From Gammaproteobacteria bacterium (lineage in GTDB: Bacteria > Pseudomonadota > Gammaproteobacteria > Pseudomonadales > Azotimanducaceae), in assembly GCA_043719475.1 (NCBI GenBank), contig JAYSTS010000293.1, forward strand, positions 5,140 to 69,139: a stretch of DNA of 64,000 bases, in the 5' to 3' direction. The notes under the pieces are model-generated. The model made no database searches. It was not told the origin of the DNA and worked only from the letters and a program-made list of their open reading frames with translations. A program made the translations under genes and the position numbers. Positions 35,375 to 55,922 of this stretch are shown here, piece after piece. Each line of letters starts with the position of its first letter. Positions within the stretch are counted from its first letter, which is position 1.

Positions 35375-35377
35375 TTA

Positions 35378-36439: not shown

Positions 36440-36445
36440 GCAGAT

Positions 36446-37018
36446 ATGGCAATCAACCCGAAGGCAACAGTTCACGAGAGTGCAATCGTCGACGATGGTG
36501 CGTCCATCGGCGCCAACACGCGAGTGTGGCACTTCGTGCATGTCAGCAGCAAAGCACGAATCGGCGAAGGATGCTCGCTGGGACAAAACGTTTACGTCGG
36601 CAACGATGTGACGATCGGCAACAACGTTCGCATCCAGAACAATGTAGCTGTCTATGATGCAGTGCGTCTTGAAGATGATGTGTTCTGTGGCCCCAGCATG
36701 GTATTCACCAACGTTTACAATCCGCGCGCGGCGATTTCACGCAAGGATGAATATCGGGAGACTTTCGTCCGCAAAGGAGCGACGCTTGGCGCCAACTGCA
36801 CCATCGTGTGTGGCAACGAGATCGGCGCCCACGCCTTCATCGCAGCTGGCGCCGTGGTGAACAAACCAGTGCCTCCATACGCGCTGATGGCCGGTGTTCC
36901 TGCCCGTCAAAAAGGCTGGATGTGCCTGTGTGGCGTCCAGTTGAAAGGAAAGGGTGACGTCACCTGCGAGTGCGGCGCCCACTATCAAATCGACGACGAG
37001 TCCTGCACACCAAAATGA
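36446..37018 (+). CDS. wbpD: UDP-GlcNAc3NA N-acetyltransferase (left-handed beta-helix)
   Basis: 190 aa with hexapeptide repeats ([42 protein letters not shown]). Confidence 0.87.
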
Positions 37019-39206: not shown

Positions 39207-39207
39207 A

Positions 39208-40686: not shown

Positions 40687-40924
40687 TTGGCAAGCTTGTT
40701 ATCCTGCACACTGCCTTCGCCAGCCGTCACAACATCCTTTTATGGGGTCGGCACGTCGGGCTCGATGTGCCGGTCGCAAGGAGAACTTTCGTGTCTGAAG
40801 ACGAACTGGATTTGATGCTATACCGCAATCGCGGAGATTGTGCTGCGACTGTTTTCCTGATGAAGGATGGCCCTGCCAACAATCGCATGTTCGTAAACCT
40901 GTGAAACCAGGACAATTCCACTCC

Positions 40925-42073
40925 ATGCCACGACATGCCGACAGATACAGCATCCGCAATGAGCGACAGTGTGTGCGATGCGTCATGGACTCATCCGATC
41001 CGATCATCACGTTCGACGCCATTGGCCAGTGCAACCATTGCACGAGTTGGTTCGCGCGCATGACAGAAGAGGTTCCTGACACCGCGAAGGCGGCTGGAGA
41101 ACTGCAGAGAATCGTCGAACGCATACAAGCAGAGGGCCGCAGGCAAGAGTATGACTGTGTCGCAGGTGTAAGCGGTGGCGTGGACAGTACCTACATCATC
41201 TATCAATTGCGACGGCTCGGTCTTCGGCCTCTGGCTGTACATTTTGACAACGGGTGGAACTCCGAACTTGCGGTTGCCAACATCAAGTCGGTCTTGGACC
41301 GCTTGGGCGTCGACCTTCATACTGAGGTGGTCGATTGGGAGGAGTTCCGCGGTCTGCAGCTCGCTTTTCTCAAGGCTTCTGTACCGAACAGCGAGATACC
41401 GACAGACCACGCCATTACCGCAACCCTGGTTACGACGGCAGAGAAAATCGGCACCCGTTTCGTCATCAATGGCAGCAACGTGATGACGGAAGGGATTCTC
41501 CCGATTGCCTGGGTTTACTACAGCCACGACCTACATCATCTAATGGCCATCCACCGACGGTTCGGAACCGGTCCACTTCGAACTTATCCACAGCTTACTC
41601 TACGGTCGTTCGCGAGTCGAATAGCTTCAGGTCGATACCGAATGGTCAATCTGCTCAACTATCTCGACTACAACCGGGCAGAAGCGATGCGTATCCTTAC
41701 GAAGGAAGCCGACTGGCGTGACTACGGTGGCAAGCACTTCGAGTCCATATACACGCGTTGGTATCAAGGTTACTACCTGATCGCCAAATTCGGCTTCGAC
41801 AAGCGCAAGGCGCACCTCTCGGCGCTGGTCTGTGCACAGCAGATCCCCCGCGAAGAGGCTCTGGACGAGCTCTCCCGTTCCCCCTACGAAGGACACGATC
41901 TGGATGCTGATACGGATTTCGTAGTTCGAAAGCTCGGCATCAGCCACGCATATCTGGCTGAGTTGATCGCGGCGCCGAACCGGAAACACACTGATTATCC
42001 GAACAGCGCCTATCTGATCGAGGGCTTGGCTGGACTTCGTCACTTCCTCCGTCGCACAGCCAAGCAAGTCTGA
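40925..42073 (+). CDS. N-acetyl sugar amidotransferase (WbpG/WbuX type), paralog 1
   Basis: CVRCVMDSSDPIITFDAIGQCNHC zinc-ribbon N-terminus, PP-loop SGGVDS and HFDNGWNSELA. The start is uncertain (40838 or 40925). Confidence 0.85.
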   Translation: MPRHADRYSIRNERQCVRCVMDSSDPIITFDAIGQCNHCTSWFARMTEEVPDTAKAAGELQRIVERIQAEGRRQEYDCVAGVSGGVDSTYIIYQLRRLGLRPLAVHFDNGWNSELAVANIKSVLDRLGVDLHTEVVDWEEFRGLQLAFLKASVPNSEIPTDHAITATLVTTAEKIGTRFVINGSNVMTEGILPIAWVYYSHDLHHLMAIHRRFGTGPLRTYPQLTLRSFASRIASGRYRMVNLLNYLDYNRAEAMRILTKEADWRDYGGKHFESIYTRWYQGYYLIAKFGFDKRKAHLSALVCAQQIPREEALDELSRSPYEGHDLDADTDFVVRKLGISHAYLAELIAAPNRKHTDYPNSAYLIEGLAGLRHFLRRTAKQV

Positions 42074-42080
42074 AAACGCG

Positions 42081-43217
42081 ATGCTTAACGCTCATGTTTA
42101 TCCTTCGACGCTGGAACACGAAAGCCGAATGCTGCGCATCACCGATGCGTTGGCGCAAAGCGGACAATTTTCGGCGATCGAGATGGTCGGCATCAGCGGT
42201 GATGGATTGTCCGAACGAGAACTGCTTGATTCGAAACGGCAGATCGTCAGGCTCCTTCCAGTCTGGACAACAAAGAGCAAATCCGGTTGGTCAAAAGTGA
42301 TGCGTCTGACGGAGTGGTCGCTCCGTGTTTACCTGTACTTCCGGAATCGACCCGTCGTCTGCGTGAACGCACACAGTCTCGCCGCATTACCAGTTTGTGC
42401 CGCCATCAGTCGTCGGCACAACGCGCTGTTGATCTACGATCCGCATGAACTGGAAACCGAAAGTATTGCCAGCCTTGGTGTGAGAAAGGTGTTCGCAAAA
42501 ATTGTGGAGCGATTGCTGGTCCATCGCTGCGACGCAGTTTTCGTCGTTAGCGATTCCATTGCGGACTGGTATGAAGCCAGATATGGGATAGCTCGACCAG
42601 TTGTGATCCGCAATTTTACCGGATCGCAGGCAACCACCTCTGGTGACAGGGAACAGTTGCGATCACGTCTGCGACTTCGTAGTGATGCCGTTACATTCAT
42701 CTATCAAGGAGCGATGATGCAAGGACGAGGCGTCGAGAGGCTGCTGCGCGTGTTCGCCAAATTGCCTCAACACGATCTTCTGATGCTGGGTGATGGCCCA
42801 CTCACTCCACTGATTGAAGGTGCCGCAGCAGATTTCCCTAACATCCAACAGCATCCGGCCGTCGAACCCGAAGTCGTGCTGGACTACACCCAGTGTGCGG
42901 ATGTCGGCCTCTGCCTGACTGAGCCGGTCTGCCTCTCGTACGTTTACTCACTACCGAACAAGCTCTTCGAGTATCTCGCAGCAGGTCTGCCCATCGTCAT
43001 CAGCGATCTTCCAGAGCAGGCTCGGTTCGTCTCTGCAAGATCATGTGGCTGGATCACACAGGCAGATGATGAAAGCCTTCTGAAGCTGTTGGCATCCATC
43101 ACGCACCAGACACTTGCGAAGTGTCGTCTTGCCGCGCTCCACACCGCAAGTGAGTGCAGCTGGTGCAACGAAGCGGAACGTATGCTGGACGTTTACCGGT
43201 CTTTAAGCCATGTCTGA
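42081..43217 (+). CDS. glycosyltransferase, GT4-like
   Basis: GT-B fold features and a C-terminal EX7E-like region (PNKLFEYLAAGLPIV). Confidence 0.72.
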   Translation: MLNAHVYPSTLEHESRMLRITDALAQSGQFSAIEMVGISGDGLSERELLDSKRQIVRLLPVWTTKSKSGWSKVMRLTEWSLRVYLYFRNRPVVCVNAHSLAALPVCAAISRRHNALLIYDPHELETESIASLGVRKVFAKIVERLLVHRCDAVFVVSDSIADWYEARYGIARPVVIRNFTGSQATTSGDREQLRSRLRLRSDAVTFIYQGAMMQGRGVERLLRVFAKLPQHDLLMLGDGPLTPLIEGAAADFPNIQQHPAVEPEVVLDYTQCADVGLCLTEPVCLSYVYSLPNKLFEYLAAGLPIVISDLPEQARFVSARSCGWITQADDESLLKLLASITHQTLAKCRLAALHTASECSWCNEAERMLDVYRSLSHV

Positions 43218-44451
43218 GCGCGGATCGATCTGGTACATCCATCCCTACGCCGGCGGTCCCGGAATCGGACGCTATGATCGGGCTTTCCACCTCTCACAGG
43301 AGTTCCGCAAACGAGGCTTCGAACCCGTTGTCATATGCCCATCGTTCCATCACCTGATGGATATGCCACAAGAGGCTGGAACGCGGTTGATTCAAGGCAT
43401 CCGCCATGAGTTCTTGCGCTGTCCAGCCTATAGCGGAAACGGTATTGGTCGCGTACTTAATATGGCCGCTTTCACGATCCAGCTACTACTGCAGGCAGGA
43501 CGTATTGCGCAGTCGACCTCGAAACCGGCCGCGATCGTTGCAAGCTCCCCCCATCCCTACGCTTATCTGGCTGCCCGGCAACTCGCCACTCGTTTTGGTT
43601 CGAGATGCATATTCGAGGTTAGGGATCTATGGCCATTAAGCCTGATTGAACTAGCCGGGGCATCGCCTACTCATCCGCTGGTCCGATTAACCGCTTGGAT
43701 CGAACGACGGGCCTACCTGACTGCTGACGCCGTGGTTTCGCTGTTGCCTTGCACCCGTGATTACATGCAGGAACGTGGCTTGCCACCCGAGCGGTGGCAC
43801 TACATTCCGAACGGAGTATCCGTCGATCGAGGCACTGCCGCAGGGCAGGATGCGGAGCTATTTCGGCAAGTACTCCAGTGGCGCGCAGAAGGATGCGTGA
43901 TCATCGTGTACGCCGGAGCTTTGGGAATGCCAAACCACGTCCACTCGTTAGTACACGCCTTGCGTCTACTCCCGCCGGGAGCCAAAGAGGTGCGGGCCGT
44001 CATTGTTGGACGGGGCGAAATGGCGACTGAGTTGAAGTTGCTGGCGTCCGATCCGGCTCTAAAAGGGTCCGTGTTGATCAGCGACCAAATTCCAAAGAGT
44101 GCAGTGCAATCGCTGCTGTCGCAGGCGGACATCGGCTATCTCTCTCTGCGACCGGAGCCCTTGTTCCGGTTCGGAATCAGTCCGAACAAGTTATTCGACT
44201 ACATGCTGGCGCGGTTACCCGTCATAGCGGCCGTACGAGCGGGTAACGATCCAGTGACAGAAACCGGTTGCGGGAGACAAGTCGATCCGGATGACGTGGT
44301 TGCCATAGCTAATGCAATTCGCTGGATTGCAGACCTCCCGGTAGCGGACCGCCAGGCGATGGGCGATCGCGGCTACCGTCACGTGCTCAGATCTCACGCG
44401 TACTCACGTCTGGCCACCGAATATCTCGAAATTTCCGGGCTGAATAGATGA
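43210..44451 (+). CDS. glycosyltransferase, GT4 (WbuB-like)
   Basis: IWYIHPYAGGPGIGRYDRAFHLSQEFRKRG N-terminus and PNKLFDYMLARLPVIA. 8-nt overlap with the upstream GT gene. Confidence 0.78.
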   Translation: MSERGSIWYIHPYAGGPGIGRYDRAFHLSQEFRKRGFEPVVICPSFHHLMDMPQEAGTRLIQGIRHEFLRCPAYSGNGIGRVLNMAAFTIQLLLQAGRIAQSTSKPAAIVASSPHPYAYLAARQLATRFGSRCIFEVRDLWPLSLIELAGASPTHPLVRLTAWIERRAYLTADAVVSLLPCTRDYMQERGLPPERWHYIPNGVSVDRGTAAGQDAELFRQVLQWRAEGCVIIVYAGALGMPNHVHSLVHALRLLPPGAKEVRAVIVGRGEMATELKLLASDPALKGSVLISDQIPKSAVQSLLSQADIGYLSLRPEPLFRFGISPNKLFDYMLARLPVIAAVRAGNDPVTETGCGRQVDPDDVVAIANAIRWIADLPVADRQAMGDRGYRHVLRSHAYSRLATEYLEISGLNR

Positions 44452-45392
44452 AGGTTGCAATCACCGGCGCCAATGGCTACATCGGGGGTGTATTGACCCA
44501 TCATTGCCTTGGCCAGGATGTCGAGGTTATCGCCTGTTCCAGGACGCCACCAGCCAGTTTGATCGGCACCGGAAATGGGCAACTGACCGCTCACCACTCC
44601 ATCGACGGAATCCCGGATCCTGACGCCATCAAAGGTTGTAGCGCAATCGTGCATCTCGCCGGTCGAGCACACAATTTCAACGCTCCGGATGCTGATGCAG
44701 CACTGTTTGACTGGAGTAATCACCAACTGGCAGTGAAGACTGCGGAGTCTGCCATTCGCGCGGGCGTCCAACGCTTCATTCAGGTCAGCACATTAAGCGT
44801 TCACGGCAACTGGTCCGAGACTCCGGTCGACGAAAACTCTGCGCTCCAGGCAACAACACCCTATGCGCTTTCCAAAATGGCTGCGGAGGTGTCTTTGGCG
44901 GCCCTGTGCCAAACGGCGGGTATGGAGCTCTGCATAGTCCGCCCGCCTCTTGTGTATGGGCGCGGTTGTCCGGGGAACTTTGTCAGGCTGATACGGTTGA
45001 TCCAATCAGGATTACCGCTTCCATTGCGGTCTGTAGATGCGCATAGATCCTTTATTTACGTCGAGAACCTGGCGGACTTCTTGCGTCATTGTATCGATCG
45101 ACCGCAATTGACTGGCCAATCGAAATTCGTGATCGGGGACGGCTCGGACTGGTCAATGCCTGAATTGGTTCGCGCTGCGGCGAGAGCGCTGGGCATCCCC
45201 GCTCGCCTCGTCCCGTTTCCACCAGCGATCCTGCAGCAGGGCGGTTCTCTTATGGGAAGACGTCGCGAAATCGACAGCATTACGCGATCCTTGCTCGTGA
45301 ACTGGTCTCGAGCCAGAACAGAATGCCACTGGGCACCGGTGATTGACCCCACACAAGCGTTCAGTCAGACGATGGCATCCTTCCGGGAATGA
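44448..45392 (+). CDS. NAD-dependent epimerase/dehydratase (SDR) family protein
   Basis: MKVAITGANGYIGG glycine-rich loop and YALSK (YxxxK) catalytic motif. ATGA overlap with the upstream gene. Confidence 0.8.
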   Translation: MKVAITGANGYIGGVLTHHCLGQDVEVIACSRTPPASLIGTGNGQLTAHHSIDGIPDPDAIKGCSAIVHLAGRAHNFNAPDADAALFDWSNHQLAVKTAESAIRAGVQRFIQVSTLSVHGNWSETPVDENSALQATTPYALSKMAAEVSLAALCQTAGMELCIVRPPLVYGRGCPGNFVRLIRLIQSGLPLPLRSVDAHRSFIYVENLADFLRHCIDRPQLTGQSKFVIGDGSDWSMPELVRAAARALGIPARLVPFPPAILQQGGSLMGRRREIDSITRSLLVNWSRARTECHWAPVIDPTQAFSQTMASFRE

Positions 45393-45401
45393 CAGCCTGT
45401 C

Positions 45402-46403
45402 TCAGCTGCCAGGACTCTGCAGGCGAGAGATGTGTCGATGCATGAGCGGTGGATTGAGGTGTTTATTTTCCTCGTAGTCGAACCACATCGCGAATCCGAG
45501 GGAGTTGAAACCAATCGAGAACGAGAACAGCCAACTGAGGAAGGTAACCTCCGGTACTTGTCCTAGATCAATCCACAACATGATGAGCCGCAGAAACATC
45601 AGTAGGCTTAAAGCCATGCCGAAGAAGCCAAACGCGTAAAAAAACACCAGTGGATGAAAATTGCGGATGATGTACTTTTCTTTCAGCCGCCAGAAAAACA
45701 ATCGAATCAGCAGAGCGCCAATCGAGAAAACGACCTTTCGCACCTTGATGCCGGACTGCTCACCGACGTCGTAAACCGGCTCAATGGGGACATCCATCAC
45801 ACGCATGCCAGCCACATTGAGCTTCACTAGCAAATCGTTCGGCTGCCCATACCGCTTGTACATGTTGTCCCAGTCAATCGTCTGGAGCGCGGTGCGATTG
45901 ATGGCGGTGTAACCAGTCTGCGAGTCCGCAACCCGCCAGTATCCGGAGGCGATCTTCGTCAGTAGTGAGAGAATCGAATTGCCAACAAACCGTATAGTCG
46001 GGATTTTCTTGTATGCATCACCAGTGACAAGACGATTACCTTTGGTGTAGTCGGTGCGGTCCTCGACGACTGGGTCGAGTATGGCCGGGAGGTCAGCGGG
46101 ATTCATCTGTCCATCGCCCGCCATGACAACGGCAATGTCGTAACCCTGATCTCGAGCCCACTTGTAGCCTGTAGCAATCGCTCCGCCAACTCCCTGGTTG
46201 ACCTCGTGTTCGATCAGGTGAACACGACCGTTCTGGTAGCCGGCACTGCTCCGCACTTCGTCAGAAGTTGCGTCCTTGCTGCAGTCATTGACGATGATGA
46301 TGGTGTCTACGACTTCCGGCATCGGATCAATGACAAGCCGTGCGACCTGTCCCACTTCGTTATAGGCGGGCACGACAACGGCAATTCTCTTTTCGCGGTA
46401 CAT
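45402..46403 (-). CDS. membrane-bound GT2, polyprenyl-phosphate glycosyltransferase-like (GtrB/ArnC/DPM1 type)
   Basis: IAVVVPAYNE, IIIVNDCSKD and DGDGQ-like (AGDGQMNP) motifs, followed by C-terminal TM helices. The start was trimmed to MYREKR. Confidence 0.78.
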   Translation of the reverse strand: MYREKRIAVVVPAYNEVGQVARLVIDPMPEVVDTIIIVNDCSKDATSDEVRSSAGYQNGRVHLIEHEVNQGVGGAIATGYKWARDQGYDIAVVMAGDGQMNPADLPAILDPVVEDRTDYTKGNRLVTGDAYKKIPTIRFVGNSILSLLTKIASGYWRVADSQTGYTAINRTALQTIDWDNMYKRYGQPNDLLVKLNVAGMRVMDVPIEPVYDVGEQSGIKVRKVVFSIGALLIRLFFWRLKEKYIIRNFHPLVFFYAFGFFGMALSLLMFLRLIMLWIDLGQVPEVTFLSWLFSFSIGFNSLGFAMWFDYEENKHLNPPLMHRHISRLQSPGS

Positions 46404-46596
46404 GATGGAATAGTCCGAAATCAGGGAGTCTAAGGCGGGGGGCATTGTCCATGCATGCAATCAACCCGTCCATCTTCATTGCCGATCTCGCAAGAGGCCA
46501 GCTCTCCAGATCAATGATAACCGTCGGTTCCAGGCGGAGAGAAGTTCAATTCGGCACTAAGTCCTCGTATAGATAACATGGAAGTCGGGACCAGCT

Positions 46597-48030
46597 TCAC
46601 TCGAATCTACTCTCTCCAATTGGAGCATAAACACCAATCCCGTGCTCACGCTGCCACCCGCACGATACCAATAGCTGGTCGATGGCCCTACGATCTGGTT
46701 TGCCCGAGCCAGTTCGAGGAACTGCGTTGACGATGATGTACTCGCGAGGCAGTGCATGTGAATCAAAGTTTGCGCGCGCCGCGGCGCGCAACGACGGAAG
46801 ATCGAAGAATGAGCCCGCGTTCGGGACTATCAACGCACCGCTGACGACCAGGCCATTACGTTGGCGTACTGGAATCACGAAGGCATCTGCCAGAAGGCCC
46901 GTTCTCAACAGAGTCTCTCGCACCGCCAGCCCGCTAACTTTGGTCCCCGACACCTTGAACACATCGTCACTTCGCCCTGCCAGGTACAGATAGCCACTCG
47001 AATCCAGCCATCCGATATCCCCTGTTGGAAAACGGCTGTGCACGGTGATGGACTCATGCTGTCCGACATAATCGATCATCAACGTGCGCCCACTGGCATG
47101 AACCTCACCGAACTCCCCCGATGCAACGGCATTACCAGCATCATCGAGCACCTCGACTGACAATCCATCAATGGCGCGACCGACTGATCCAGGAAGTTGA
47201 GGACGGTCATCCGGGTGGAGAGAGGTGAAACGACCTGCGACTTCGGTCAAGCCATAGAAGACATGCAAACGGACCTGCGGCAGATTCCGGGTAATGATAT
47301 CTCTGCTAGAGGCTGGCAGATCGTCGCCCGAAGTCATCAGCCATCCAAGCGAGCTCTCTCCCAACAGTCCTTCAGCAAGCCACCGCGCCTGTAGCGGAGC
47401 GCCGCCAAATCCTGTCGGAGAGACTTGCCGAACGCGACTAACCAGATCCTTTGCAAGCAGTGGCCTGCCTATGGCTGTGAAACGAGCACCTGACACCAGA
47501 CATGCAAGGAAATGGCAGATGGCACTGGTGAAGTGGAACGGAATGTTGATCATGAGATGATCGTCAGGTGTCATTCCCAGGCGTTTCACGCTTGCTTGGG
47601 CATTTTCGAGAAGTGCCTGAGACGTCAAGCGGACGCCTTTTCGAGCTCCAGTGGAGCCACTTGTCAGAAGCACAGTACTTTCCACACGCTGGTCCGGATC
47701 AAGGGCCGGATTATCCTTTGCAAGAAGAATCTGGATTTCATCAATCGCAGCCGCAGAAAGTCCCGGCTCCACGGGGCAACAAATCCCGCCACTTACCCAG
47801 GTAGCACACATTTCCAGGAAAAACTCAGCAGTCTCACTGGCAACGATGAGTCGCCTCTGCCCTGTCACGTCACCGTTCTTTCTCAAGCCATCGGCACGTT
47901 GGTTGACTTGGTAGACGAACGCTGATGGACTCAGCTTTTGAGAAGCATCATCGATCCACCAGCTATGAGTCGACTTCGCAAGTCTTGCAAGCAATTGGGT
48001 CAGCATGATTGCACTCGAGCCATCACTCAA
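46597..48030 (-). CDS. adenylate-forming (ANL) ligase, DltA-like size
   Basis: Core motifs LLTSGSTGARKGV (A3), FYGLTE (A5), TGDIGWLD (A7), GRSDDVFKVSGTKV (A8) and PRTGSGKPDR (A10). 8-nt overlap with the upstream MBOAT gene. Confidence 0.85.
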   Translation of the reverse strand: MSDGSSAIMLTQLLARLAKSTHSWWIDDASQKLSPSAFVYQVNQRADGLRKNGDVTGQRRLIVASETAEFFLEMCATWVSGGICCPVEPGLSAAAIDEIQILLAKDNPALDPDQRVESTVLLTSGSTGARKGVRLTSQALLENAQASVKRLGMTPDDHLMINIPFHFTSAICHFLACLVSGARFTAIGRPLLAKDLVSRVRQVSPTGFGGAPLQARWLAEGLLGESSLGWLMTSGDDLPASSRDIITRNLPQVRLHVFYGLTEVAGRFTSLHPDDRPQLPGSVGRAIDGLSVEVLDDAGNAVASGEFGEVHASGRTLMIDYVGQHESITVHSRFPTGDIGWLDSSGYLYLAGRSDDVFKVSGTKVSGLAVRETLLRTGLLADAFVIPVRQRNGLVVSGALIVPNAGSFFDLPSLRAAARANFDSHALPREYIIVNAVPRTGSGKPDRRAIDQLLVSCGWQREHGIGVYAPIGESRFE

Positions 48031-49657
48031 AAATTCTCACGGGGATCATCATGATTCCTTTCCAGAATCGAAAATACACTTCAATGGCGGTTTTCGGATC
48101 TTCAATCTGGGCAAACGCGTGTCCCGCAGCAACCCAGGTGAGTGTGCCTAAACGCGCTGGCAGAGAGAGCACCTGATTGCGCCAACCGCGTTGCCACGAC
48201 GAAGCCTGGTTTTTCGACGCCATCGACTTACGACGCCAGCGAACGAGCGAAGACTCTATCGCTACCAGCACCCCGTGGTGAACGGCCCAGAGCATCCACG
48301 ACAACCCGATGCTGTGCCACATCCCGACGCCCAACATCACCATCATCGATGCAATCGCTGGACGTCGGGTTGACAGAAGCAAAGGCATGAAGATGTTGCG
48401 CATGCACCATCCGGACACGCTCATGTGCCATCTGCGCCAATAGTCCATGACGCTCCGCGCGAGAAACGGAAAATTGAAGTTCTCGGGAGCAGACCAGCCC
48501 AACAACCGACTCAGACCAATCGCGATATCAGAGTAAGCAGAAAAGTCGATATAGACGTAGGCAAATGCAATGAACAGAAAGACCACAGCAGCCAAAGGAT
48601 CTGACTGATCCGAACCGAACACGGCAAGCGCAATACCTTCATCGGACCACAACAGCGGGAACAAGAGTGCATCAGCTATAACCAGCTTCTTGAATACCCC
48701 CCAGCCAACTCGTCGACTGCCAGAAACACATGCATCTACCGTTACGCGTTCGCTTCTTGCGCCCCGGAAGCGCTCGAGAGTATCGACGGGTCCAGCTGCG
48801 ATGGACGCAGGGAACAAGACAAAAAAGAGGAACTCTTCAAACGTCACGTCGCGTTGCTGGTTCCGGTACCAACGAATTTGCGTATCGACTACCCGAATCA
48901 CGATGTACGAAATGCCGAGCGGCAACAGGAGTTCGAAGCCTCCTGGATTGGCGAAGACATTTTCAATTCCAGTAGCCGCATACTTGGCCGCAAACAACAC
49001 TACTGCCGCCCCAGCCAGCGAAGCAGCAAGTTGTGTGAACTCTCCCGGTGGATATCGGGTTCCTAGGTAATGTAGTACGTACAGCAGCGCAACGATGGTC
49101 ACAGCAAATACAGGCTGCAACCAGGCCAATAAGCCAAGGGTCCCTGCGAGTAGAACGCGACGTTGCAGTATGGGCCTGCTCACGACAAGCCAACTGAGCG
49201 GAATCATCAGCACAATACCGATGAACAGTACGGACAGCCCCCCCGACGCTGCAGTCGTCCATTGATGACGAAGCACAACAGACTGAATTCCCTCAACGCG
49301 AACCGGATTTCGCGCGGTGATGTAGACCGTAGTCTTGTCCGGTACGCTTACCAGCAAGCGACACATCTTTGGTTCTGGTCGACATGTCGGCCAAGCACCA
49401 TTGACTCCGATCCGGATGCCTAAGTCCGCACTTGTGACGCCCTCGATGTCCAGCGCGAAAAGACGTGTCGCAGAAACAGACCGTAGTCGACCGACGAGCA
49501 CATCGCCTGTATCCAGTTGCAGCGGCCAGGTGATCGCTGAACTGTCATCAATAAGTTGGTATTCGACCTCAACCTTGTCACGCAGCACTAAAGCGAGGGC
49601 TAAAAAAACCAACCAGACGAGTATGCAGAGCAGCGTAGTTTTATTGGCAAGTTCCAA
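48023..49657 (-). CDS. MBOAT-family O-acyltransferase (DltB/AlgI-like) with N-terminal extension
   Basis: YWRRWHMSVSGWCMRNIFMPL and MWHSIGLSWMLWAVHHG contain the conserved MBOAT histidines. About 150 extra N-terminal residues follow one TM helix. Confidence 0.85.
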   Translation of the reverse strand: MELANKTTLLCILVWLVFLALALVLRDKVEVEYQLIDDSSAITWPLQLDTGDVLVGRLRSVSATRLFALDIEGVTSADLGIRIGVNGAWPTCRPEPKMCRLLVSVPDKTTVYITARNPVRVEGIQSVVLRHQWTTAASGGLSVLFIGIVLMIPLSWLVVSRPILQRRVLLAGTLGLLAWLQPVFAVTIVALLYVLHYLGTRYPPGEFTQLAASLAGAAVVLFAAKYAATGIENVFANPGGFELLLPLGISYIVIRVVDTQIRWYRNQQRDVTFEEFLFFVLFPASIAAGPVDTLERFRGARSERVTVDACVSGSRRVGWGVFKKLVIADALLFPLLWSDEGIALAVFGSDQSDPLAAVVFLFIAFAYVYIDFSAYSDIAIGLSRLLGWSAPENFNFPFLARSVMDYWRRWHMSVSGWCMRNIFMPLLLSTRRPAIASMMVMLGVGMWHSIGLSWMLWAVHHGVLVAIESSLVRWRRKSMASKNQASSWQRGWRNQVLSLPARLGTLTWVAAGHAFAQIEDPKTAIEVYFRFWKGIMMIPVRIFE

Positions 49658-49660
49658 TGG

Positions 49661-49909
49661 TCACCTGCTGCGGCTCTGGATCTGCCGGACGATGCGCTCG
49701 ATGCTGTCCATGTCTTCCAGGCCTATATCAAACGCTGAAAAAGTGACCGCCCATAGTGATTCGATGAATTCGAGAATGGACAAGAGGTCGATACTGTCGA
49801 GCAGGCCGCTTGAAAACAGCGGATCCTCGTCCGCCAACGACGAGTCCAATCCCATTTCCCGTGTGAGAAACTCGCGAATCTGCAGACTCGGTGTTTGCAA
49901 GTTTGTCAT
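49661..49909 (-). CDS. acyl/peptidyl carrier protein (DltC-like)
   Basis: 82 aa and acidic. GLLDSIDLLSILEFIE provides the phosphopantetheine-attachment serine context. Confidence 0.8.
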   Translation of the reverse strand: MTNLQTPSLQIREFLTREMGLDSSLADEDPLFSSGLLDSIDLLSILEFIESLWAVTFSAFDIGLEDMDSIERIVRQIQSRSR

Positions 49910-50985
49910 GTGCTTGATCGTCTTCCCGTTCGTTCAATGATATCGCCAATGCGATCGGCAACCAGCACGGAGATCTTGGCGCGGCCAGATTCGAGCAGAT
50001 GCAGCGGATCCGCAAAATCTTCAGCGAGAAGCCCATCAACGTCGCGCAAGTCGATAACCTCGGTCAGTTCGGAGAGACGCTTCATCGCACCGCGTTCAAT
50101 CACGTCAAGCTGATGAGCAGTTATCGCCATCGTCTCCGTTGGGTCTCGTGGGAACATCATCAAGACAGGATGGAACCCGCGTGTAACCGACCGTTCGATG
50201 AAGCGGGCGTAAACTGCTTCCGCAAGTTGATGATTCTGTTGGACGAGTGGGCGCAACTCAGCGTGTGCAATGGCAACACTCGCCTGCTTTTCCGATTCCA
50301 GCTGTCTGGATTCAACAGAATAGAAATTTCTCTGCGCGATCATCGGTCGCAAGCACACCTCTCGCTCCGCCTGGGCAAGGAGGTTTAGCCAATCGCAATC
50401 GCGTTGATCGAGGTAGTTGGCAATGACCGCAGAGTTCCGGATTAGCGACGGCGTCAAGGCGACCTCCAAACGGGTGCCAAGTGATGCGCTATCGAGTACG
50501 GAAGTCCAGTCCAGGTGTGCTATCCGTGGTCTTCGAACAAGCGCGTCCAGATCCCGACCAGACTCGACAAGATTCTGCCAACTCAGCTGCAACGCAACGA
50601 CTGTCCCGTGGGGAGCATCCAATGTGTCAATAATCGCCACGGCTTCGATAGGAGAAAAACTGCTGTAAGCGAGGTTTCGGACATCGACCGGGGCGGCAAC
50701 AGCGGTTTGCAGCAACTCAGCCAGATGCAAATCGTCGGGGACACCTTCTCGCGTGACCGAGCCACCGAGCAAGACCAATGCTTGACCAGACGGATGAAAG
50801 CGATGCAGCACGAATTCGACGTAGGACGCATCATCCACATATCGACGTGGCAGGTCCCACTGAGCAACGTACGTGTTGAGAACGGACCCGAAATAGTCGA
50901 GCAGTAGCAGCGTCGTGATCAGTCCGAGCAGCGGAGGAAGCGTGCCCGATGCAACTTCAACCACACTTTTTTTCTCACGCATCAA
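49906..50985 (-). CDS. membrane-anchored hypothetical protein, putative DltD/SGNH-like acyltransferase
   Basis: N-terminal TM helix (LPPLLGLITTLLLLDYF). LVLLGGSVTREG is a possible block-I Ser and C-terminal DPLHLLESG is a possible DxxH block V. 4-nt overlap with the ACP gene. The assignment rests on context and weak motifs. Confidence 0.4.
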   Translation of the reverse strand: MMREKKSVVEVASGTLPPLLGLITTLLLLDYFGSVLNTYVAQWDLPRRYVDDASYVEFVLHRFHPSGQALVLLGGSVTREGVPDDLHLAELLQTAVAAPVDVRNLAYSSFSPIEAVAIIDTLDAPHGTVVALQLSWQNLVESGRDLDALVRRPRIAHLDWTSVLDSASLGTRLEVALTPSLIRNSAVIANYLDQRDCDWLNLLAQAEREVCLRPMIAQRNFYSVESRQLESEKQASVAIAHAELRPLVQQNHQLAEAVYARFIERSVTRGFHPVLMMFPRDPTETMAITAHQLDVIERGAMKRLSELTEVIDLRDVDGLLAEDFADPLHLLESGRAKISVLVADRIGDIIERTGRRSST

Positions 50986-51115
50986 AACCCGGCGTAACGG
51001 AAAGCCTCAACGGATACGTTGAGTATCAAAGCAAAGGAAACTGCTAGAAATCCGGCAGTCCAGATAAGGTATTGCGCGACACCTCGCAGAAGCAATCCTA
51101 CTCGTGCCATTGCTG

Positions 51116-52564
51116 TCAACTTCCCGCCTGCGCGGCCTGCACACGTCGACGCTTCTCTTCAGTAGAGATCTCATAACCAACCGGAACGTACTCCCGACCT
51201 GCAGCCAGTAGGCCTTGCTCTGCATTACGAGCTGCTCGAATGCGCTTCGCCTGGTCGATAAAATTCTGGCCTTGGCCGACCAGCGAGCTCCAGTTCAGAA
51301 CTTCACCTTGGTGTTCGAACCCGAGTAGAGGTCGGTGCAGGATCGTGTGATGCCGAACCATGGATGTAAGCATCCGGAGATGCAGATTCTGGCTCGCCTC
51401 GATTTCAGAAAACACCAATGGCGCCGTCAGCAGATCGCCGATTGCATAGTCATCACGTCGCAGGTAACGGGTACGCTCGATGAATCGCTGATACACGGAT
51501 TCCAGTTTTTGCTTGTTGCGCGGACTGTATGCTGCCAGCAAAACTGCATCCGGTTTAATCAAAGCGCCATGTTCCCTCGCGAACAAGTCTCGTCGACTGG
51601 TGACGATGCAACGATACTCTTCGGTCGGACCCGTCCTCACCGGGCAGATGTCGCACGCGATACAACGATGCACGTCCTCTCGCGTGAAGTCACTGAGCTG
51701 AATCGTAAGTCCGGGTTGTTCCAGCTGTTCAACGAATCGATTCGCCAACATGAAACCCCGGCGATCTTCGGAGTCCTGCAACAACCAGATTGCAACATGA
51801 GCATGTGCTGGGCCAGTCTTTTTTCCTGCCTCTAGTCCTTTTACGACTCGTGCCACCCGGCGTCCTGTATCTATGGAAGTTTCCAGACCATAGTTGTCAC
51901 GGGCAGCCGTACCAACATCTCCGGCCACAACCGTTCCGCCGTATTGCGATGTTGATCCCGCATCATTGCCAACACCGAGCATGCCAAGATTGATCATGTC
52001 CAGCAGTTGGTAAATCAATGTTGTTTCCTGGCCGCCATTGCGTTTCGCTCCTACGGCCAAACCACCAAAGACGCGGCCTCTGAGATGGGCCTGCAACTCG
52101 GGGTCACCATATAAAAAGTGGACAAACTCCTGTGCGACCGAGCTACGATCCCCAAAATAGACCGGTCCGGAAAGGACGAGGCCATCGGCCTCCATCAACA
52201 AACTCCGCAATTCACCCAGATTTCTCGGCTCTCCCGTCTCCGGAAAGTGATCTGACAGATTGACGCAGGCGATCTCTACTTTTTCCTGCAAAGCTCCCCA
52301 TAACGCTGCAGCCAGCGCAACTTCGCAATTACTCAGCCCGCGAAGGCCGGTCGACCTTCGTAGGTCGCGATACATCTCGTCAAAAGTGACTCCCTTCGCC
52401 CTTGCTGCGTTGAATGCTTCGAGCAGTGCTCCGGACTCAGTCTCGAGGAAAGCCTTCAATGAATTCAGGTCAGAACATCGAGCGAGCTCAACAGATAAAT
52501 CGCGCAGACCGATCCCATGTCGTGATCCTCGAAGACTGGCGGACAGTCCGACAATGAGTGGCAT
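51116..52564 (-). CDS. tandem flavodoxin-fold (NADPH-dependent FMN reductase / iron-sulfur flavoprotein-like) protein
   Basis: The first half has PLIVGLSASLRGS and ADGLVLSGPVYFGDRSS. The second half has a second flavodoxin-like unit with the cysteine cluster CIACDICP-x10-C (codons at 51608-51664). The start was trimmed to MPLIVG. Confidence 0.55.
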   Translation of the reverse strand: MPLIVGLSASLRGSRHGIGLRDLSVELARCSDLNSLKAFLETESGALLEAFNAARAKGVTFDEMYRDLRRSTGLRGLSNCEVALAAALWGALQEKVEIACVNLSDHFPETGEPRNLGELRSLLMEADGLVLSGPVYFGDRSSVAQEFVHFLYGDPELQAHLRGRVFGGLAVGAKRNGGQETTLIYQLLDMINLGMLGVGNDAGSTSQYGGTVVAGDVGTAARDNYGLETSIDTGRRVARVVKGLEAGKKTGPAHAHVAIWLLQDSEDRRGFMLANRFVEQLEQPGLTIQLSDFTREDVHRCIACDICPVRTGPTEEYRCIVTSRRDLFAREHGALIKPDAVLLAAYSPRNKQKLESVYQRFIERTRYLRRDDYAIGDLLTAPLVFSEIEASQNLHLRMLTSMVRHHTILHRPLLGFEHQGEVLNWSSLVGQGQNFIDQAKRIRAARNAEQGLLAAGREYVPVGYEISTEEKRRRVQAAQAGS

Positions 52565-52876
52565 AGTCTGTATTCCGTAACCGGTGTTCCTCATTATAGG
52601 CAGGGAGCACACAAGCTAGCCAGAATCTGTGGTCTGGCAGCGACGACAAAGGCCAATCAGGGGAGTCCAACGCGAACGAAGCCACACTCCATCGCTCGAT
52701 GTCGGGAAAATGGCGGCGCGCCTCCAGCCCAATCGGCAAGTTCTATAGGTCCCGACATTTCCCAATGCGTTCGTCACGAAAGCAGCCCACTCGACCAGCA
52801 AGACACAGCTCATCCGGGAAATCTGTACAGTATGCTTGCAGCCATCAAGAGCACAGGACGTGAATCTCCAGAGAAT

Positions 52877-54022
52877 ATGTCTGATCAATCCTCACAAATC
52901 TGCCTCCGATGCATCATGGATACCTCCGACCCGCAAATCGCGTTCGATGAAGAGGGAGTCTGTAACCATTGTCGCTTCTTCGATACTGAGCTCTCAAAGA
53001 CTTGGCATCCGAACCAGCAGGGAAGAGAAGAACTCAACTCGCTCGTCGAACGAATCAAGTCAGAAAATCGCGGCCGACCGTACGATTGCGTCATCGGACT
53101 GAGCGGCGGCATAGACAGTTCCTACCTGGCCTACGTGGCGCGCCGTGAACTCGGACTGCGTCTCCTGGCCATACACGTTGATGGAGGGTGGAATTCAGAG
53201 CTGGCCGTCAGGAATATTGAAGGCATCGTCACTCGACTGGGTATCGACCTCCATACACAGGTCGTTGATTGGGAGGAAATGCGCGATCTGCAACGTGCAT
53301 TTCTGCGCGCTGGTCTGGCCAACCAGGACGTACCGCAGGATCATGCCTTCATCTCCGGTCTCTATTCACAGGCGGTACAGCACGGAATCCGCCACGTGCT
53401 GAGTGGGGGCAACGTTGCCACGGAGTCGATCCTACCTGGCGAGTGGGCCTATAACGCCATGGATTTGCGGCATCTGCGTGCTATCCACAAGCGTTTTGGA
53501 GAAGCCCCTTTGCGCACATTTCCGACGGTGAACTTTTTTCAGTACTACTTCTGGTATCCGGTCGTTAAACGCATGACGGTATTGCGCCCCCTCAATTTCC
53601 TGCCGTATGTCCGGGACGATGCGATCCGAACGCTCGAGCGGGAAACAGGATTCACTTACTACGGCGGAAAACACTTCGAATCACGGTTCACAAAATGGCA
53701 GCAGCTTTATTATCGACCGTACAAATTTGGCTACGACGAGCGGCGGGCATATTTATCGAGCCTGATACTCTCTGGCCAGATGGACCGGCAAACGGCACTC
53801 GATGCTATCGCCGAACCCGGTTACTCCGACGCACAGTTACGCGAAGACAGCGATTTCGTTTGTAACAAGTTGGGGTTTTCGAGCGAGGAATTCACGCAAA
53901 TCCTCAACCTTCCACCAAGGACATTTCGTGACTACCCCTCCAATCACCATCTGTTCAGCTTCAAGGACAAGCTCAAGTCGCGGCTTGGTGAGTTCGGTGT
54001 CACGTTTCGGAGAAGGTCTTGA
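52877..54022 (+). CDS. N-acetyl sugar amidotransferase (WbpG/WbuX type), paralog 2
   Basis: CLRCIMDTSDPQIAFDEEGVCNHC, PP-loop SGGIDS and HVDGGWNSELA. Roughly half the residues are identical to paralog 1 by eye. Confidence 0.85.
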   Translation: MSDQSSQICLRCIMDTSDPQIAFDEEGVCNHCRFFDTELSKTWHPNQQGREELNSLVERIKSENRGRPYDCVIGLSGGIDSSYLAYVARRELGLRLLAIHVDGGWNSELAVRNIEGIVTRLGIDLHTQVVDWEEMRDLQRAFLRAGLANQDVPQDHAFISGLYSQAVQHGIRHVLSGGNVATESILPGEWAYNAMDLRHLRAIHKRFGEAPLRTFPTVNFFQYYFWYPVVKRMTVLRPLNFLPYVRDDAIRTLERETGFTYYGGKHFESRFTKWQQLYYRPYKFGYDERRAYLSSLILSGQMDRQTALDAIAEPGYSDAQLREDSDFVCNKLGFSSEEFTQILNLPPRTFRDYPSNHHLFSFKDKLKSRLGEFGVTFRRRS

Positions 54023-54092: not shown

Positions 54093-55922
54093 ATGTGCGG
54101 GATAGCAGGTTACATCGCCCGTCGAGGGCGAGCAGTGGATCGGGAACGGCTGACAGCGATGTGTGCTGCGGTAAGTCATCGTGGGCCAGATGGCACGGGA
54201 CTGACGATCACCGGAAGTGTCGGGCTGGGACACCGACGCCTCTCAATCTTTGATCTCTCGGCCGACGGGGCGCAGCCAATGCTCGATCCACAGTCGGGTC
54301 GCAGCATCATCTTCAATGGGGCCATTTACAATTACCTGGAATTGCGTGCGGACCTCGCCAACAGGGGGCGACGCTTTTACACCGGCACCGATACCGAGGT
54401 CATTCTCGCGGCTTACGACACGTGGGGTTCAGACTGTGTGAACCACTTCAATGGCATGTGGGCATTCGCGATCCACGACCCGCAGGCAGGCATCGTGTTC
54501 TGCTCCCGCGATCGCTTTGGCATCAAACCGTTTTACTATGTCGAGACCACCGATTGTCTTGCTTTCGGTTCAGAAATTCGTCAGTTGTTACCACTGTTGC
54601 CTGCTGTCCGTGTGTGCCATGAGGTATTGATCGATTTCGTTTTTTCCGATCGCTGCGAACACCGGGAAGACACGTTTTTCGACTCCGTCCGCAAGCTGCC
54701 AGCGGGTTGCAATCTGACCTATCGGCTGGATCAGGACCGTCATTTCCAGGAACGGTACTATCGTCTTGAACGACGAACGGATCTCGAGAAGATCTCCCTC
54801 GACGATGCCATCGCTTTGTACAAAGACGGATTGGAAGACGCTGTGCGCTTGCGTCTGCGCTCAGATGCGCCGCTTGGGACTTGCCTCAGCGGTGGTCTGG
54901 ACAGTTCCAGTGTCGCTAGCCTGGCAGCAACTCTCTACCATCAGCCCGATGGAATGGCGTTCGCCGCTGTCACAGCGGTGAGCGAAGACCCGGACAATGA
55001 CGAATCGGCTTATGCTCGCTCGGTAGCCATTAATGCTGGTCTGCATTGGCTAACGACAAAGCCAGACTACGCAGCATTCGAGTCGTCCATCGAAGCAGTC
55101 GTTGAAGCCCAGGAAGAGCCCTTCGCCGGTCCTTCGATTTGTATGCAGTACTTTGTCATGCGCACCGCACGCGAGTCTGGACTGAAGGTATTGCTTGATG
55201 GGCAGGGCGGTGACGAAACGCTATTGGGTTACGAACGCTATTTCGCCGCCCACTATCTCGCTATACGACGCCGTCACGGATGGCGGGCAATGATGAGCAG
55301 CATGCGTTCAAGTGCCAGACACAACGCTCGCATGTCGCCTCGAATAATTGCGGGATACCTCGCTTATTTTTCTTCGCCCCAAGCGCGCTATTGGCAATAC
55401 AAGCGACGCCATCACTACCTGACACAATCACCCGCCATCCCTGATCATCTGATCCGTTACGCAGAGGCCAGTCGTGACGAGTTTGAGCTGCAACGACTGG
55501 AAATCGAAACTACCAATCTGCCGGCTTTGTTGCGCTACGAAGACAAAAACGCCATGTGGCATGGGGTTGAAACGCGCCTGCCTTTTCTCGACTACCGTCT
55601 GGTCGAAACCGCACTGGCGTTACCTGGCGAGTACAAGGTAAGGGAGGGTTGGACCAAATACGTGCTGCGCAGAGGAATGTCCGGGATATTGCCGGACCAC
55701 ATCGCCTGGCGACGCGACAAGCGCGGTTTTGAAGCGCCAGAATCTATTTGGCTGGCTCGTCACTCGAATCAAATGGAAAATATGGTCAGAAATTCAAGGG
55801 TTCTGGCGTCTGTGTGCGACACCAGTCGATTACATTCCGCGTACAGCTCACTCGATCCAGGCACACGGTGGCGCCTCTACAGCGTCGCTTTATGGGAGGA
55901 GTGCTTCAGCGTCTCTGCGTGA
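54093..55922 (+). CDS. asparagine synthase (glutamine-hydrolysing) family amidotransferase
   Basis: MCGIAGY Ntn glutaminase start and the PP-loop CLSGGLDSS. 609 aa. This is the WbpS-like class seen in O-antigen loci. Confidence 0.9.
   Translation: MCGIAGYIARRGRAVDRERLTAMCAAVSHRGPDGTGLTITGSVGLGHRRLSIFDLSADGAQPMLDPQSGRSIIFNGAIYNYLELRADLANRGRRFYTGTDTEVILAAYDTWGSDCVNHFNGMWAFAIHDPQAGIVFCSRDRFGIKPFYYVETTDCLAFGSEIRQLLPLLPAVRVCHEVLIDFVFSDRCEHREDTFFDSVRKLPAGCNLTYRLDQDRHFQERYYRLERRTDLEKISLDDAIALYKDGLEDAVRLRLRSDAPLGTCLSGGLDSSSVASLAATLYHQPDGMAFAAVTAVSEDPDNDESAYARSVAINAGLHWLTTKPDYAAFESSIEAVVEAQEEPFAGPSICMQYFVMRTARESGLKVLLDGQGGDETLLGYERYFAAHYLAIRRRHGWRAMMSSMRSSARHNARMSPRIIAGYLAYFSSPQARYWQYKRRHHYLTQSPAIPDHLIRYAEASRDEFELQRLEIETTNLPALLRYEDKNAMWHGVETRLPFLDYRLVETALALPGEYKVREGWTKYVLRRGMSGILPDHIAWRRDKRGFEAPESIWLARHSNQMENMVRNSRVLASVCDTSRLHSAYSSLDPGTRWRLYSVALWEECFSVSA

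Follow-up and report, generated by a model that had tools for sequence, protein, structure and literature searches.

The window analysed here is a 64,000-nucleotide (nt) stretch of contig JAYSTS010000293.1 (positions 5,140 to 69,139, forward strand; assembly GCA_043719475.1) from a gammaproteobacterium of the family Azotimanducaceae. It contains a cassette of six closely spaced minus-strand genes that encode an adenylating ligase of the ANL type, an MBOAT (membrane-bound O-acyltransferase), a small carrier protein, a DltD-like SGNH protein, a microprotein with a DltX-like C-terminus and an iron-sulfur (Fe-S) flavoprotein (Table 1). The first-pass annotation of this DNA, made from its letters and open reading frames (ORFs), had described a unit of four genes. 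These four minus-strand ORFs and their tight packing were borne out by the ORF listing, but the unit comprises six genes rather than four, as a micro-ORF and the flavoprotein gene upstream of it have to be added. The flavoprotein gene ends 5 nt ahead of the ATG of the micro-ORF, and the stop codon of the micro-ORF and the ATG of the DltD-like gene have one base in common. The junctions that had been reported further along, a 4-nt overlap, a 3-nt gap and an 8-nt overlap, hold for the ORFs, although the last of them hinges on a TTG start for the ligase. Initiation of the ligase at Met9 (position 48006), which would give 469 amino acids (aa) and a 16-nt gap to the MBOAT gene, is more likely, judging by how this gene was called in L001, a near-identical contig, and by homologue lengths of 465 to 469 aa. 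The DltD-like gene, too, more likely begins at ATG 50982 (358 aa), as in homologue P0001; an exact look-up of the 359-aa product of the window returned no record, the deposited protein having the ATG and not the TTG start. The G+C content of the cassette (∼0.54 to 0.55) equals that of its flanks, and its composition is unremarkable. A promoter and terminator scan of positions 45300 to 53000 was uninformative, since sites were no more frequent than in shuffled sequence.

Table 1. Features of the cassette and of the surrounding glycan locus (coordinates are those of the window).
Feature	Coordinates	Strand	Remarks
WbpA-, WbpB-, WbpD-, WbpE- and WbpI-type genes	34061-39206	plus	Pfam/NCBIfam matches
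Glycan genes following the wbp-type genes	within 34061-45392	plus	Wzx-type flippase, WbuX-type amidotransferase, two family 4 glycosyltransferases (GT4), epimerase/dehydratase
WbuX-type amidotransferase of the preceding row	40838-42073	plus	Family match
Family 2 glycosyltransferase (GT2), polyprenyl-phosphate glycosyltransferase-like (PpgS/GtrB-like)	45402-46460	minus	Glycos_transf_2; PpgS below cut-off
ANL adenylating ligase	46597-48030	minus	477 aa from TTG start; AMP-binding and AMP-binding_C
DltB-type MBOAT	48023-49657	minus	544 aa; Pfam MBOAT
Carrier protein, DltC-like role	49661-49909	minus	82 aa; LLDSID is the predicted phosphopantetheine serine site
DltD-like SGNH protein	49906-50985; 49906-50982 from ATG	minus	359 aa for the longer ORF; fold and predicted triad
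DltX-like microprotein	50982-51110	minus	42 aa from ATG; longest ORF from TTG 51119
Fe-S flavoprotein	51116-52564	minus	About 482 aa from ATG 52564; longest ORF from GTG 52612
Second WbuX-type N-acetyl-sugar amidotransferase	52832-54022	plus, divergent	TIGR03573, 293 bits (cut-off 203)
AsnB-type amidotransferase	54093-55922	plus	asn_synth_AEB, 423 bits (cut-off 267)

The first-pass annotation saw no DltX-like micro-ORF, which was an oversight. An ORF of 45 codons (positions 50982 to 51119, minus strand) lies between the flavoprotein and DltD-like genes and, depending on the start, encodes 42 to 45 aa ending in EAFRYAGF. Translated from ATG 51110, the product of 42 aa (MARVGLLLRGVAQYLIWTAGFLAVSFALILNVSVEAFRYAGF) has a single hydrophobic segment according to hydropathy, and its C-terminal FRYAGF fits the pattern FXYXXF. 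The acyl shuttle of DltX is a C-terminal FXYXXF motif, the Tyr of which takes D-alanine from DltC via DltB and hands it to DltD, and MBOATs that work without DltX bear FXYXXF on their own C-terminus (PMC12148441). By analogy, Tyr39 of the FRYAGF sequence is predicted to be the acyl shuttle of the cassette. Across all six frames of the window, the pattern F.Y..F directly followed by a stop codon occurs once, against an expected 0.05 occurrences. Moreover, a micro-ORF ending in FRY[AVI][GA]F and a stop codon accompanies the cassette in nine independent loci (the window together with L001, then L004, L005, L006, L007, L008/L009, L010, L015 and L016), the DltD-like proteins of which are, where measurable, 25 to 51% identical to that of the window. 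In eight of these loci the gene that comes directly after it is the DltD-like one; the exception is L010, where the flavoprotein gene follows the micro-ORF and the DltD-like gene is transcribed divergently. Another dlt-like operon (L011:10001-15131) encodes, in this order, a ligase, a DltD-like protein of 330 aa, a 50-aa micro-ORF, a protein of 285 aa, a short MBOAT (383 aa) and an acyl carrier protein (ACP), with a micro-ORF ending in AVYERY and not in FXYXXF.

The DltD-like protein, annotated as hypothetical by NCBI, matched no Pfam or NCBIfam model. Its close homologues are rare: five were identified using a word-indexed search of 5.8 billion proteins, and 254 at an E value of ≤1e−3 when 1.84 billion representatives were searched exhaustively with a profile. 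In an alignment of 40 homologues (19 to 74% identity) the sole invariant columns were Gly74, Ser76, Asp326 and His329 (residue numbers of the predicted triad follow the 359-aa ORF), and these correspond to the GGS and DPLH motifs that had been picked out in the first pass. Ser76, Asp326 and His329 are predicted to form the catalytic triad, as SGNH nucleophile and acid-base pair in the order found in DltD. When the same 40 homologues were compared with sequence models, Lipase_GDSL_2 was matched by three, DUF1574 by two and DltD by none, and nothing significant was obtained when the DltD-like alignment was run as a profile against PDB sequences. The AlphaFold2 model, built from six sequences (predicted local distance difference test [pLDDT], 76), shows a helix at residues 8 to 42 and, after it, an alpha/beta domain that has an insert of helices; hydropathy and the N-terminal Arg and Lys residues would fit an anchor with its N-terminus inside and the catalytic domain outside. 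Foldseek placed DltD structures (6o93, 6pfx, 3bma and 7dxm) in all of the top 11 PDB positions, with E values of 1e−4 to 5e−3 over the full length, and generic SGNH esterases and PatB ranked after them (E value, ≥1e−2). In the first pass its motifs had been called weakly SGNH/DltD-like; "only marginally DltD-like" understates a fold whose 11 best matches are all DltD.

Two further scans were made with DltD-like alignments. A scan of metagenomes with an alignment of 13 sequences identified three loci, and a scan of GTDB species representatives gave only two partial matches, covering residues 321 to 346, in metagenome-assembled genomes (MAGs) of Acidimicrobiales. The latter were rejected as instances of the same cassette, as the gene set is a different one (SGNH-like, WS/DGAT, ligase). 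In an Acidimicrobiales MAG (L002:6559-13190), the gene for a distant SGNH-like protein with the motif DFxDxxHL precedes those for a WS/DGAT-type acyltransferase and an AMP-binding ligase, with Wzz/BY-kinase and methyltransferase genes adjoining; this set may represent an actinobacterial analogue that relies on another transferase.

The family calls made in the first pass for the ligase and the MBOAT were reproduced with Pfam (AMP-binding, E value of 8.6e−35; MBOAT, E value of 1.1e−14). The best match of the MBOAT in the PDB was DltB (E value, 1.2e−25), with the histidine of the WHMS sequence aligned, and DGAT1 came next at 1.7e−4. DltB (TIGR04091) was also its sole NCBIfam match, at 134.8 bits, which is below the equivalog cut-off of 375. 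The sequence WRRWHMS is found at residue 407. A C-terminal FXYXXF motif was absent from all seven MBOATs examined (window, L001, L005, L007, L009, L010 and L011), the window protein ending in MMIPVRIFE, as expected of a DltB-type enzyme, for which the shuttle has to be a separate protein. The MBOAT is ∼140 aa longer than DltB, the hydropathy profile showing a transmembrane helix at the N-terminus and then a ∼100-aa domain ahead of the core, and the extra length is common to relatives of 524 to 553 aa. Residues 1 to 135 comprise this helix and the domain, which is beta-rich, has no counterpart in DltB and is predicted to be periplasmic. A PDB search with the domain returned only an insignificant match to CBM35 (2vzp; E value, 0.72), to be taken as a lead and not as evidence. 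The 2vzp module binds uronic acid, and the N-terminal domain may be an acceptor-binding module.

The LLDSID motif reported for the carrier protein is present, and the serine motif [GNEK]xLDS[IML][DE] is kept in eight loci. No Pfam match was obtained for the carrier protein of the window; positional homologues in L005, L006, L010, L011 and L014 match PF00550 (PP-binding). Its NCBIfam matches, ACP_for_OlsHI (43 bits; cut-off, 130) and DltC (21 bits; cut-off, 68), are both below cut-off. Assignment as the ornithine-lipid ACP was rejected on that score and because no OlsH or OlsI gene lies nearby.

The ligase does not look DltA-like in its specificity. In the PDB search, DltA (1e−21) was outranked by the nonribosomal peptide synthetase (NRPS) adenylation domains of LgrA and Txo2 and by oxalyl-CoA synthetase. 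The best NCBIfam match was the exosortase-A-associated acyl-CoA ligase (E value, 4e−49; far below cut-off), and DltA was not among the best 25 of the 100 NCBIfam families matched. The A10 lysine is present (Lys444), and the A5 motif, YGLTE, is of the acyl-CoA-synthetase type. When the ligase is aligned with the two adenylation domains of LgrA, Thr168 falls opposite the Asp of their A4 "FD" motif. In amino-acid-activating enzymes this Asp, part of the NRPS specificity code, binds the alpha-amino group. With Thr in its place D-alanine is unlikely, and of the "aminoacyl or short acyl" group suggested in the first pass the aminoacyl option is disfavoured. We infer from these residues that the substrate would be a carboxylic acid lacking an alpha-amino group, which the ligase is predicted to load onto the carrier protein. 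Among 127 members of the ligase family, Thr168 is kept in 102, Arg267 in 115 and Lys444 in 123, and YGLTE, which Arg267 follows, is conserved. The residues at specificity-code positions include the polar, conserved Thr168, Ser169, Cys172 and Arg267, and His166 and His173 flank the pocket positions in the A4 motif. An approximate ten-residue pocket code assembled by hand from the LgrA alignment (T-S-C-Q-M-S-F-G-R-K) matched no characterised specificity. Arg267 was rejected as a substrate-specific residue, as it is found family-wide, including in a branch that is associated with ComA and ComB (see below).

The flavoprotein is a conserved member of the cassette rather than a neighbour, as judged from its 5-nt spacing and its recurrence in other loci. 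Of the independent cassette loci, eight still have sequence upstream of the micro-ORF, and five of these eight contain the flavoprotein gene; in L001, L004, L006 and L007 it adjoins the cassette, and in L010 it lies between the DltX-like micro-ORF and the carrier gene. In L014 it adjoins genes for an ACP and a ligase. Its N-terminal half is FMN_red/WrbA-like (Pfam FMN_red; E value, 1.1e−10), and the C-terminal half carries a four-Cys motif, RCxACDxCP...YRC, which resembles the cluster motif of iron-sulfur flavoprotein (Isf). This motif and GAKRNGGQETT were invariant in 40 homologues. The AlphaFold2 model (pLDDT, 88.5) shows tandem flavodoxin-like domains, for which Foldseek returned only generic matches of the WrbA, PnpB and azoreductase type (best in the PDB, WrbA and PnpB) that offer no clue to the substrate. 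More than 1,237 homologues were identified at an E value of ≤1e−10, and identities of ∼50% are maintained across Alpha- and Gammaproteobacteria, Nitrospina and Legionella. Many flavoprotein and ligase matches share longest contigs of the same size (for example, 878138, 143958, 51422, 14697, 15903, 12007, 9135, 25136 and 37443), from which further co-occurrence may be inferred.

As the first-pass annotation had it, the cassette lies in wbpABDEI/wzx surroundings. WbpA-, WbpB-, WbpD-, WbpE- and WbpI-type families (nucleoside diphosphate [NDP]-sugar 6-dehydrogenase, GFO/IDH/MocA oxidoreductase, hexapeptide N-acetyltransferase, DegT aminotransferase and UDP-GlcNAc-type 2-epimerase) occur in that order, followed by a Wzx-type flippase; assignment to the Wbp pathway is a family-level match. 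Housekeeping genes of proteobacterial type (glnA-ntrB-ntrC, gpmI-envC-ctp and mutY) were also identified in the window. The two WbuX paralogues and the AsnB-type amidotransferase point to acetamidino and/or uronamide groups on the glycan, and the second WbuX gene recurs as a neighbour of the cassette in L001 and L007. The GT2 gene, 136 nt downstream of the ligase, encodes a C-terminal hydrophobic segment (residues 269 to 302) and may be co-transcribed with the cassette. It has no counterpart downstream of the cassette in L007 and is therefore not conserved with it. As a PpgS/GtrB/AglJ-like gene it suggests an extra periplasmic glycosylation step, and no GT-C partner was seen.

The best evidence tying the cassette to this glycan type comes from L007, an endosymbiont of the tubeworm Escarpia laminata with relatives in Chromatiales/Gammaproteobacteria. 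All six genes, those for the flavoprotein, the microprotein, the DltD-like protein, the carrier, the MBOAT and the ligase, are present in L007 at 27 to 50% identity to the window, and beside this diverged cassette stand WbpB-, WbpD-, WbpE-, WbpI- and WbuX-like neighbours (identities of 71, 66, 55, 48 and 54%, respectively). Wzy, Bac_transf and GT4 genes are also carried in its flanks. In L006, a gene for a UDP-sugar dehydrogenase was identified near the cassette.

Other loci differ in their surroundings and in part of the gene set. In L010:596-17055, from Curvivirga aplysinae, genes for the DltX-like microprotein, the flavoprotein, the ACP, the MBOAT and the ligase, with a divergent DltD-like gene, are neighboured by genes for an RTX-type protein (HemolysinCabind), a GNAT protein and a C39-peptidase ATP-binding cassette (ABC)/type I secretion system, which raise the possibility of a protein acceptor in this organism. 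In two unrelated metagenomic loci (L005 and L015), the five genes from the micro-ORF to the ligase are present without the flavoprotein gene, and divergent genes for ComB (2-phosphosulfolactate phosphatase), ComA (phosphosulfolactate synthase) and a glyoxalase-family protein (L005:938-2752 and L015:6665-8524) are found instead. The ligases of these two loci have Gln166, Leu170 and Ser172 in the A4 motif, as opposed to His166, Ala170 and Cys172 in the window, which suggests a different acid; there is a hint that sulfolactate may be the acid that this branch attaches to its acceptor as an ester. Ligase relatives of 33 to 35% identity were located in flagellin nonulosonate glycosylation islands (L012, L013 and L014). 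In the marine (Tara) locus L014:8204-13337, genes for a flavoprotein, an ACP and a ligase precede those for an Antibiotic_NAT-fold protein and a PseG-like glycosyltransferase in a flagellin/Maf island, with no MBOAT or DltD-like gene alongside, so this supply trio seems portable between periplasmic and cytoplasmic acylation. In L012 and L013, the ligase is accompanied by a small ACP-like gene and a GSCFA protein, again without MBOAT. Grouping of the ligase with lipid or secondary metabolism, which the first-pass annotation had named as grounds for abandoning its proposal, was not what was found, as the family occurs in O-antigen/exopolysaccharide loci and in flagellin nonulosonate islands.

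Two further features lie elsewhere in the window, the first of them unrelated to the cassette. On the minus strand at 21220 to 25208, genes for a 1,082-aa transglutaminase/DUF2126 "amidoligase" and then a proteasome-family subunit resemble an Anbu-type operon. From 58001 to 64000, the G+C content rises from ∼0.55 to ∼0.60 to 0.61, which may mark the boundary of a genomic segment.

The observed gene set, its packing, its motifs, the folds of two of its proteins and an arrangement conserved in distant genomes invite comparison with the characterised Dlt and PatAB pathways, and it is by analogy with these that chemical steps, an acyl group and an acceptor are proposed. Each of the five Dlt roles has a candidate in the cassette, and the genes are closely spaced. 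Overall, the cassette is probably a six-gene Dlt-type relay that would place a non-amino acyl group, as an extracytoplasmic ester, on a flipped glycan. The cytoplasmic ANL ligase would adenylate a carboxylic acid lacking an alpha-amino group and thioesterify it to the phosphopantetheine of the carrier protein, and the flavoprotein, of the FMN/[4Fe-4S] type, would make or redox-tailor this acid, either free or carrier bound. The MBOAT, through the histidine of WRRWHMS, could then move the acyl group through the membrane onto Tyr39 of the microprotein at the periplasmic face. From there it would be taken by Ser76 of the membrane-anchored DltD-like SGNH enzyme, which would esterify a hydroxyl of the acceptor after flipping by Wzx. 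By the same analogy, the acceptor would most probably be the amidated 2,3-diacetamido-uronic-acid-type glycan of the surrounding wbp-like genes. That the exported glycan is esterified at the periplasmic face in a Dlt-like, carrier-protein-dependent way had already been suggested in the first pass, and the DltD fold, the FXYXXF microprotein and the DltB-type MBOAT support it.

Several points weigh against this account. None of the curated DltA, DltB, DltC or DltD models was passed, two of the proteins (DltD-like and carrier) being without a Pfam match as well. The Foldseek TM-scores to DltD are low (0.35 to 0.45), although the E values, the ranking and the full-length alignment favour DltD, and the fold model comes from just six sequences; these modest scores and the small alignment are why the protein is labelled as having a DltD fold and not as a DltD orthologue. 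The flavoprotein fold says only "WrbA-like FMN oxidoreductase," and every step, like the acyl group and the acceptor, would rest on analogy. The link between cassette and wbp-type loci derives from two loci with long flanks, and elsewhere the neighbours are of other kinds: the cassette of C. aplysinae has genes for an RTX-like protein and for type I secretion, and not glycan genes, beside it, and those of L005 and L015 adjoin sulfolactate-synthesis genes, with no glycan genes within view. These three loci would suit a relay that works as proposed on some other envelope molecule, such as lipid A/core, peptidoglycan, a glucan of the periplasm, or a protein that is secreted or displayed at the surface, as would the canonical dlt genes of Dickeya and Pectobacterium, which are thought to act on lipopolysaccharide (LPS) in general (PMC5541007). 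That acceptor is unlikely, though it deserves to be kept in mind: the cassette sits between wbp-like genes and WbuX/AsnB tailoring genes both here and in the distant L007, a UDP-sugar dehydrogenase gene is near it in L006, and the ligase family recurs in glycosylation islands. The islands themselves offer another outlet, in which the ligase, carrier and flavoprotein would mainly feed cytoplasmic N-acylation of a nucleotide sugar and the MBOAT, DltD-like protein and DltX-like microprotein would form a separate or secondary outlet. The trio of L014, found beside an Antibiotic_NAT-fold N-acyltransferase and a PseG-like gene, and the MBOAT-free sets of L012 and L013 are of this pattern. For the window it is improbable, as the carrier gene shares 4 nt with the DltD-like gene and is separated by 3 nt from that for the MBOAT, the MBOAT is of the DltB type without its own shuttle motif (the known type draws its acyl group from a carrier protein), and there is no Antibiotic_NAT-type gene beside the cassette.

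Two further readings concern the acyl group. In one, the cassette would be an ordinary dlt operon of the kind by which Firmicutes, and a few Gram-negative bacteria, D-alanylate their surface to withstand cationic peptides. Consistent with it are the component set, which fits DltX/A/B/C/D, the recognisable relationship of the ligase to DltA structures (E value, 1e−21) and the existence of canonical dlt(X)ABCD operons in Dickeya and Pectobacterium (PMC5541007). Against it, Thr168 of the ligase occupies the position of the alpha-amino-binding Asp, the A5 motif is of the acyl-CoA-synthetase type, no Dlt equivalog model was passed, the conserved Fe-S flavoprotein has no counterpart in dlt operons, and the gene order here is X-D-C-B-A; an ordinary operon is thus very improbable. 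Slightly less credible still is lipidation, with the ligase as a fatty-acyl-AMP or acyl-ACP synthetase and the MBOAT moving a medium or long chain, like eukaryotic MBOATs. It draws on the YGLTE motif, on sub-threshold NCBIfam matches to long-chain fatty-acid CoA ligases (E value, 6e−42), on the label "long-chain acyl-CoA synthetase" given to homologues by JGI, and on L002, where the distant SGNH-like protein and ligase accompany a wax-ester-synthase-type acyltransferase. The fatty-acid ligase names are generic, however, with scores far below the cut-offs; the pocket is polar and conserved (Thr168, Ser169, Cys172 and Arg267, with His166 and His173 alongside); the MBOAT is nearest to DltB, an enzyme that hands on a small acyl group; and no fatty-acid synthesis genes are nearby.

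Should the six-gene relay act on the glycan as proposed, the Dlt mechanism would extend beyond teichoic acids, and 2,3-diacetamido-uronic-acid-type glycans would bear an undescribed ester substituent, with a bearing on serotype, phage and immune recognition, and symbiont surfaces. A function would be available for more than 1,000 "flavodoxin family" proteins and for DltD-like proteins annotated as hypothetical, and the cassette would provide a compact, testable system for the choice of carrier-bound donors by MBOATs. A wider reading that takes all of these loci jointly is possible but is put forward tentatively, as it falls short of an even chance: the cassette may belong to an unrecognised, widespread class of Gram-negative envelope acylation, with a portable flavoprotein-carrier-ligase trio, two outlets and a sulfolactate sister branch. 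The trio would make an unusual, redox-tailored acyl-carrier thioester. One outlet would be a trans-membrane relay of the DltB/DltX/DltD type that esterifies periplasmic O-antigen or exopolysaccharide, as in the window, and the other would be cytoplasmic N-acyltransferases in flagellin nonulosonate islands; in the sister branch, ComA and ComB would take the place of the flavoprotein and may install sulfolactate. The DltX acyl-tyrosine shuttle would then be a general carrier-fed mechanism and not a speciality of D-alanine and teichoic acid, and new glycan substituents would be predicted. No description of a system like the cassette was found in the literature searched.

Among known systems, the Dlt pathway of Firmicutes shares with the cassette the ligase, what is in the cassette a putative carrier of ∼80 aa, the DltB-type MBOAT without its own motif, the FXYXXF microprotein of ∼40 aa and the anchored SGNH protein of DltD fold, as well as the tightly coupled operon and the same predicted topology. 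The cassette differs in its position in a proteobacterial glycan locus, in the order X-D-C-B-A, in a ligase that lacks the amino-binding Asp and probably does not use D-alanine, in the additional Fe-S flavoprotein and in the N-terminal helix and ∼100-aa domain of the MBOAT, and it passes no curated Dlt model. Teichoic acid is not expected in a Gram-negative envelope and would not be the acceptor of the cassette. In AlmEFG of Vibrio cholerae, a DltA-like ligase loads a DltC-like carrier with glycine for the modification of lipid A. AlmG is an LpxL-family acyltransferase of the cytoplasmic face, and AlmEFG is not known to use an MBOAT-microprotein-SGNH relay. Unlike AlmEFG, the cassette operon has no gene for an LpxL-family acyltransferase, its transferases being an MBOAT and an SGNH protein; the only PF01553 acyltransferase found in the window (32761 to 33570) lies outside the locus. 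Flagellin glycosylation islands resemble the cassette in having a dedicated ligase and carrier among sugar-tailoring genes; they differ in lacking MBOAT, DltD-like and DltX-like genes, so that a cytoplasmic use of the acyl group is probable. Uncharacterised ACP and AMP-dependent synthetase genes are present in Campylobacter flagellin glycosylation loci. Similar genes have been noted, as uncharacterised, in group II flagellin islands of Aeromonas (PMC7874193).

The dlt operons of Dickeya and Pectobacterium (PMC5541007) are, like the cassette, Dlt-type systems in a Gram-negative envelope, where they presumably act on LPS or an outer-surface component. They consist of recognisable orthologues in A-B-C-D order, with assumed transfer of D-alanine, whereas the cassette has diverged beyond the reach of the DltD and DltC models, its ligase is predicted to be of the non-amino-acid type, and it includes a flavoprotein. 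PatA/PatB (peptidoglycan), AlgI/AlgJ/AlgX (alginate) and WssH/WssI (cellulose) likewise acylate a periplasmic polymer using an MBOAT and an SGNH protein, with an acyl-Tyr in FXYXXF (PMC12148441). In these, the MBOAT bears its own FXYXXF motif and uses acetyl-CoA, and there is no carrier, ligase or microprotein; in the cassette, the motif is on a separate microprotein and the donor would be a dedicated carrier protein. MBOAT/SGNH pathways other than Dlt are described as having neither a carrier protein nor a DltX-like microprotein (PMC12148441; the 2025 paper on the PatAB mechanism). The cassette would be a counter-example to these two components being restricted to Dlt, representing a second, deeply diverged family that combines a carrier, an acyl-Tyr shuttle and a DltD fold.

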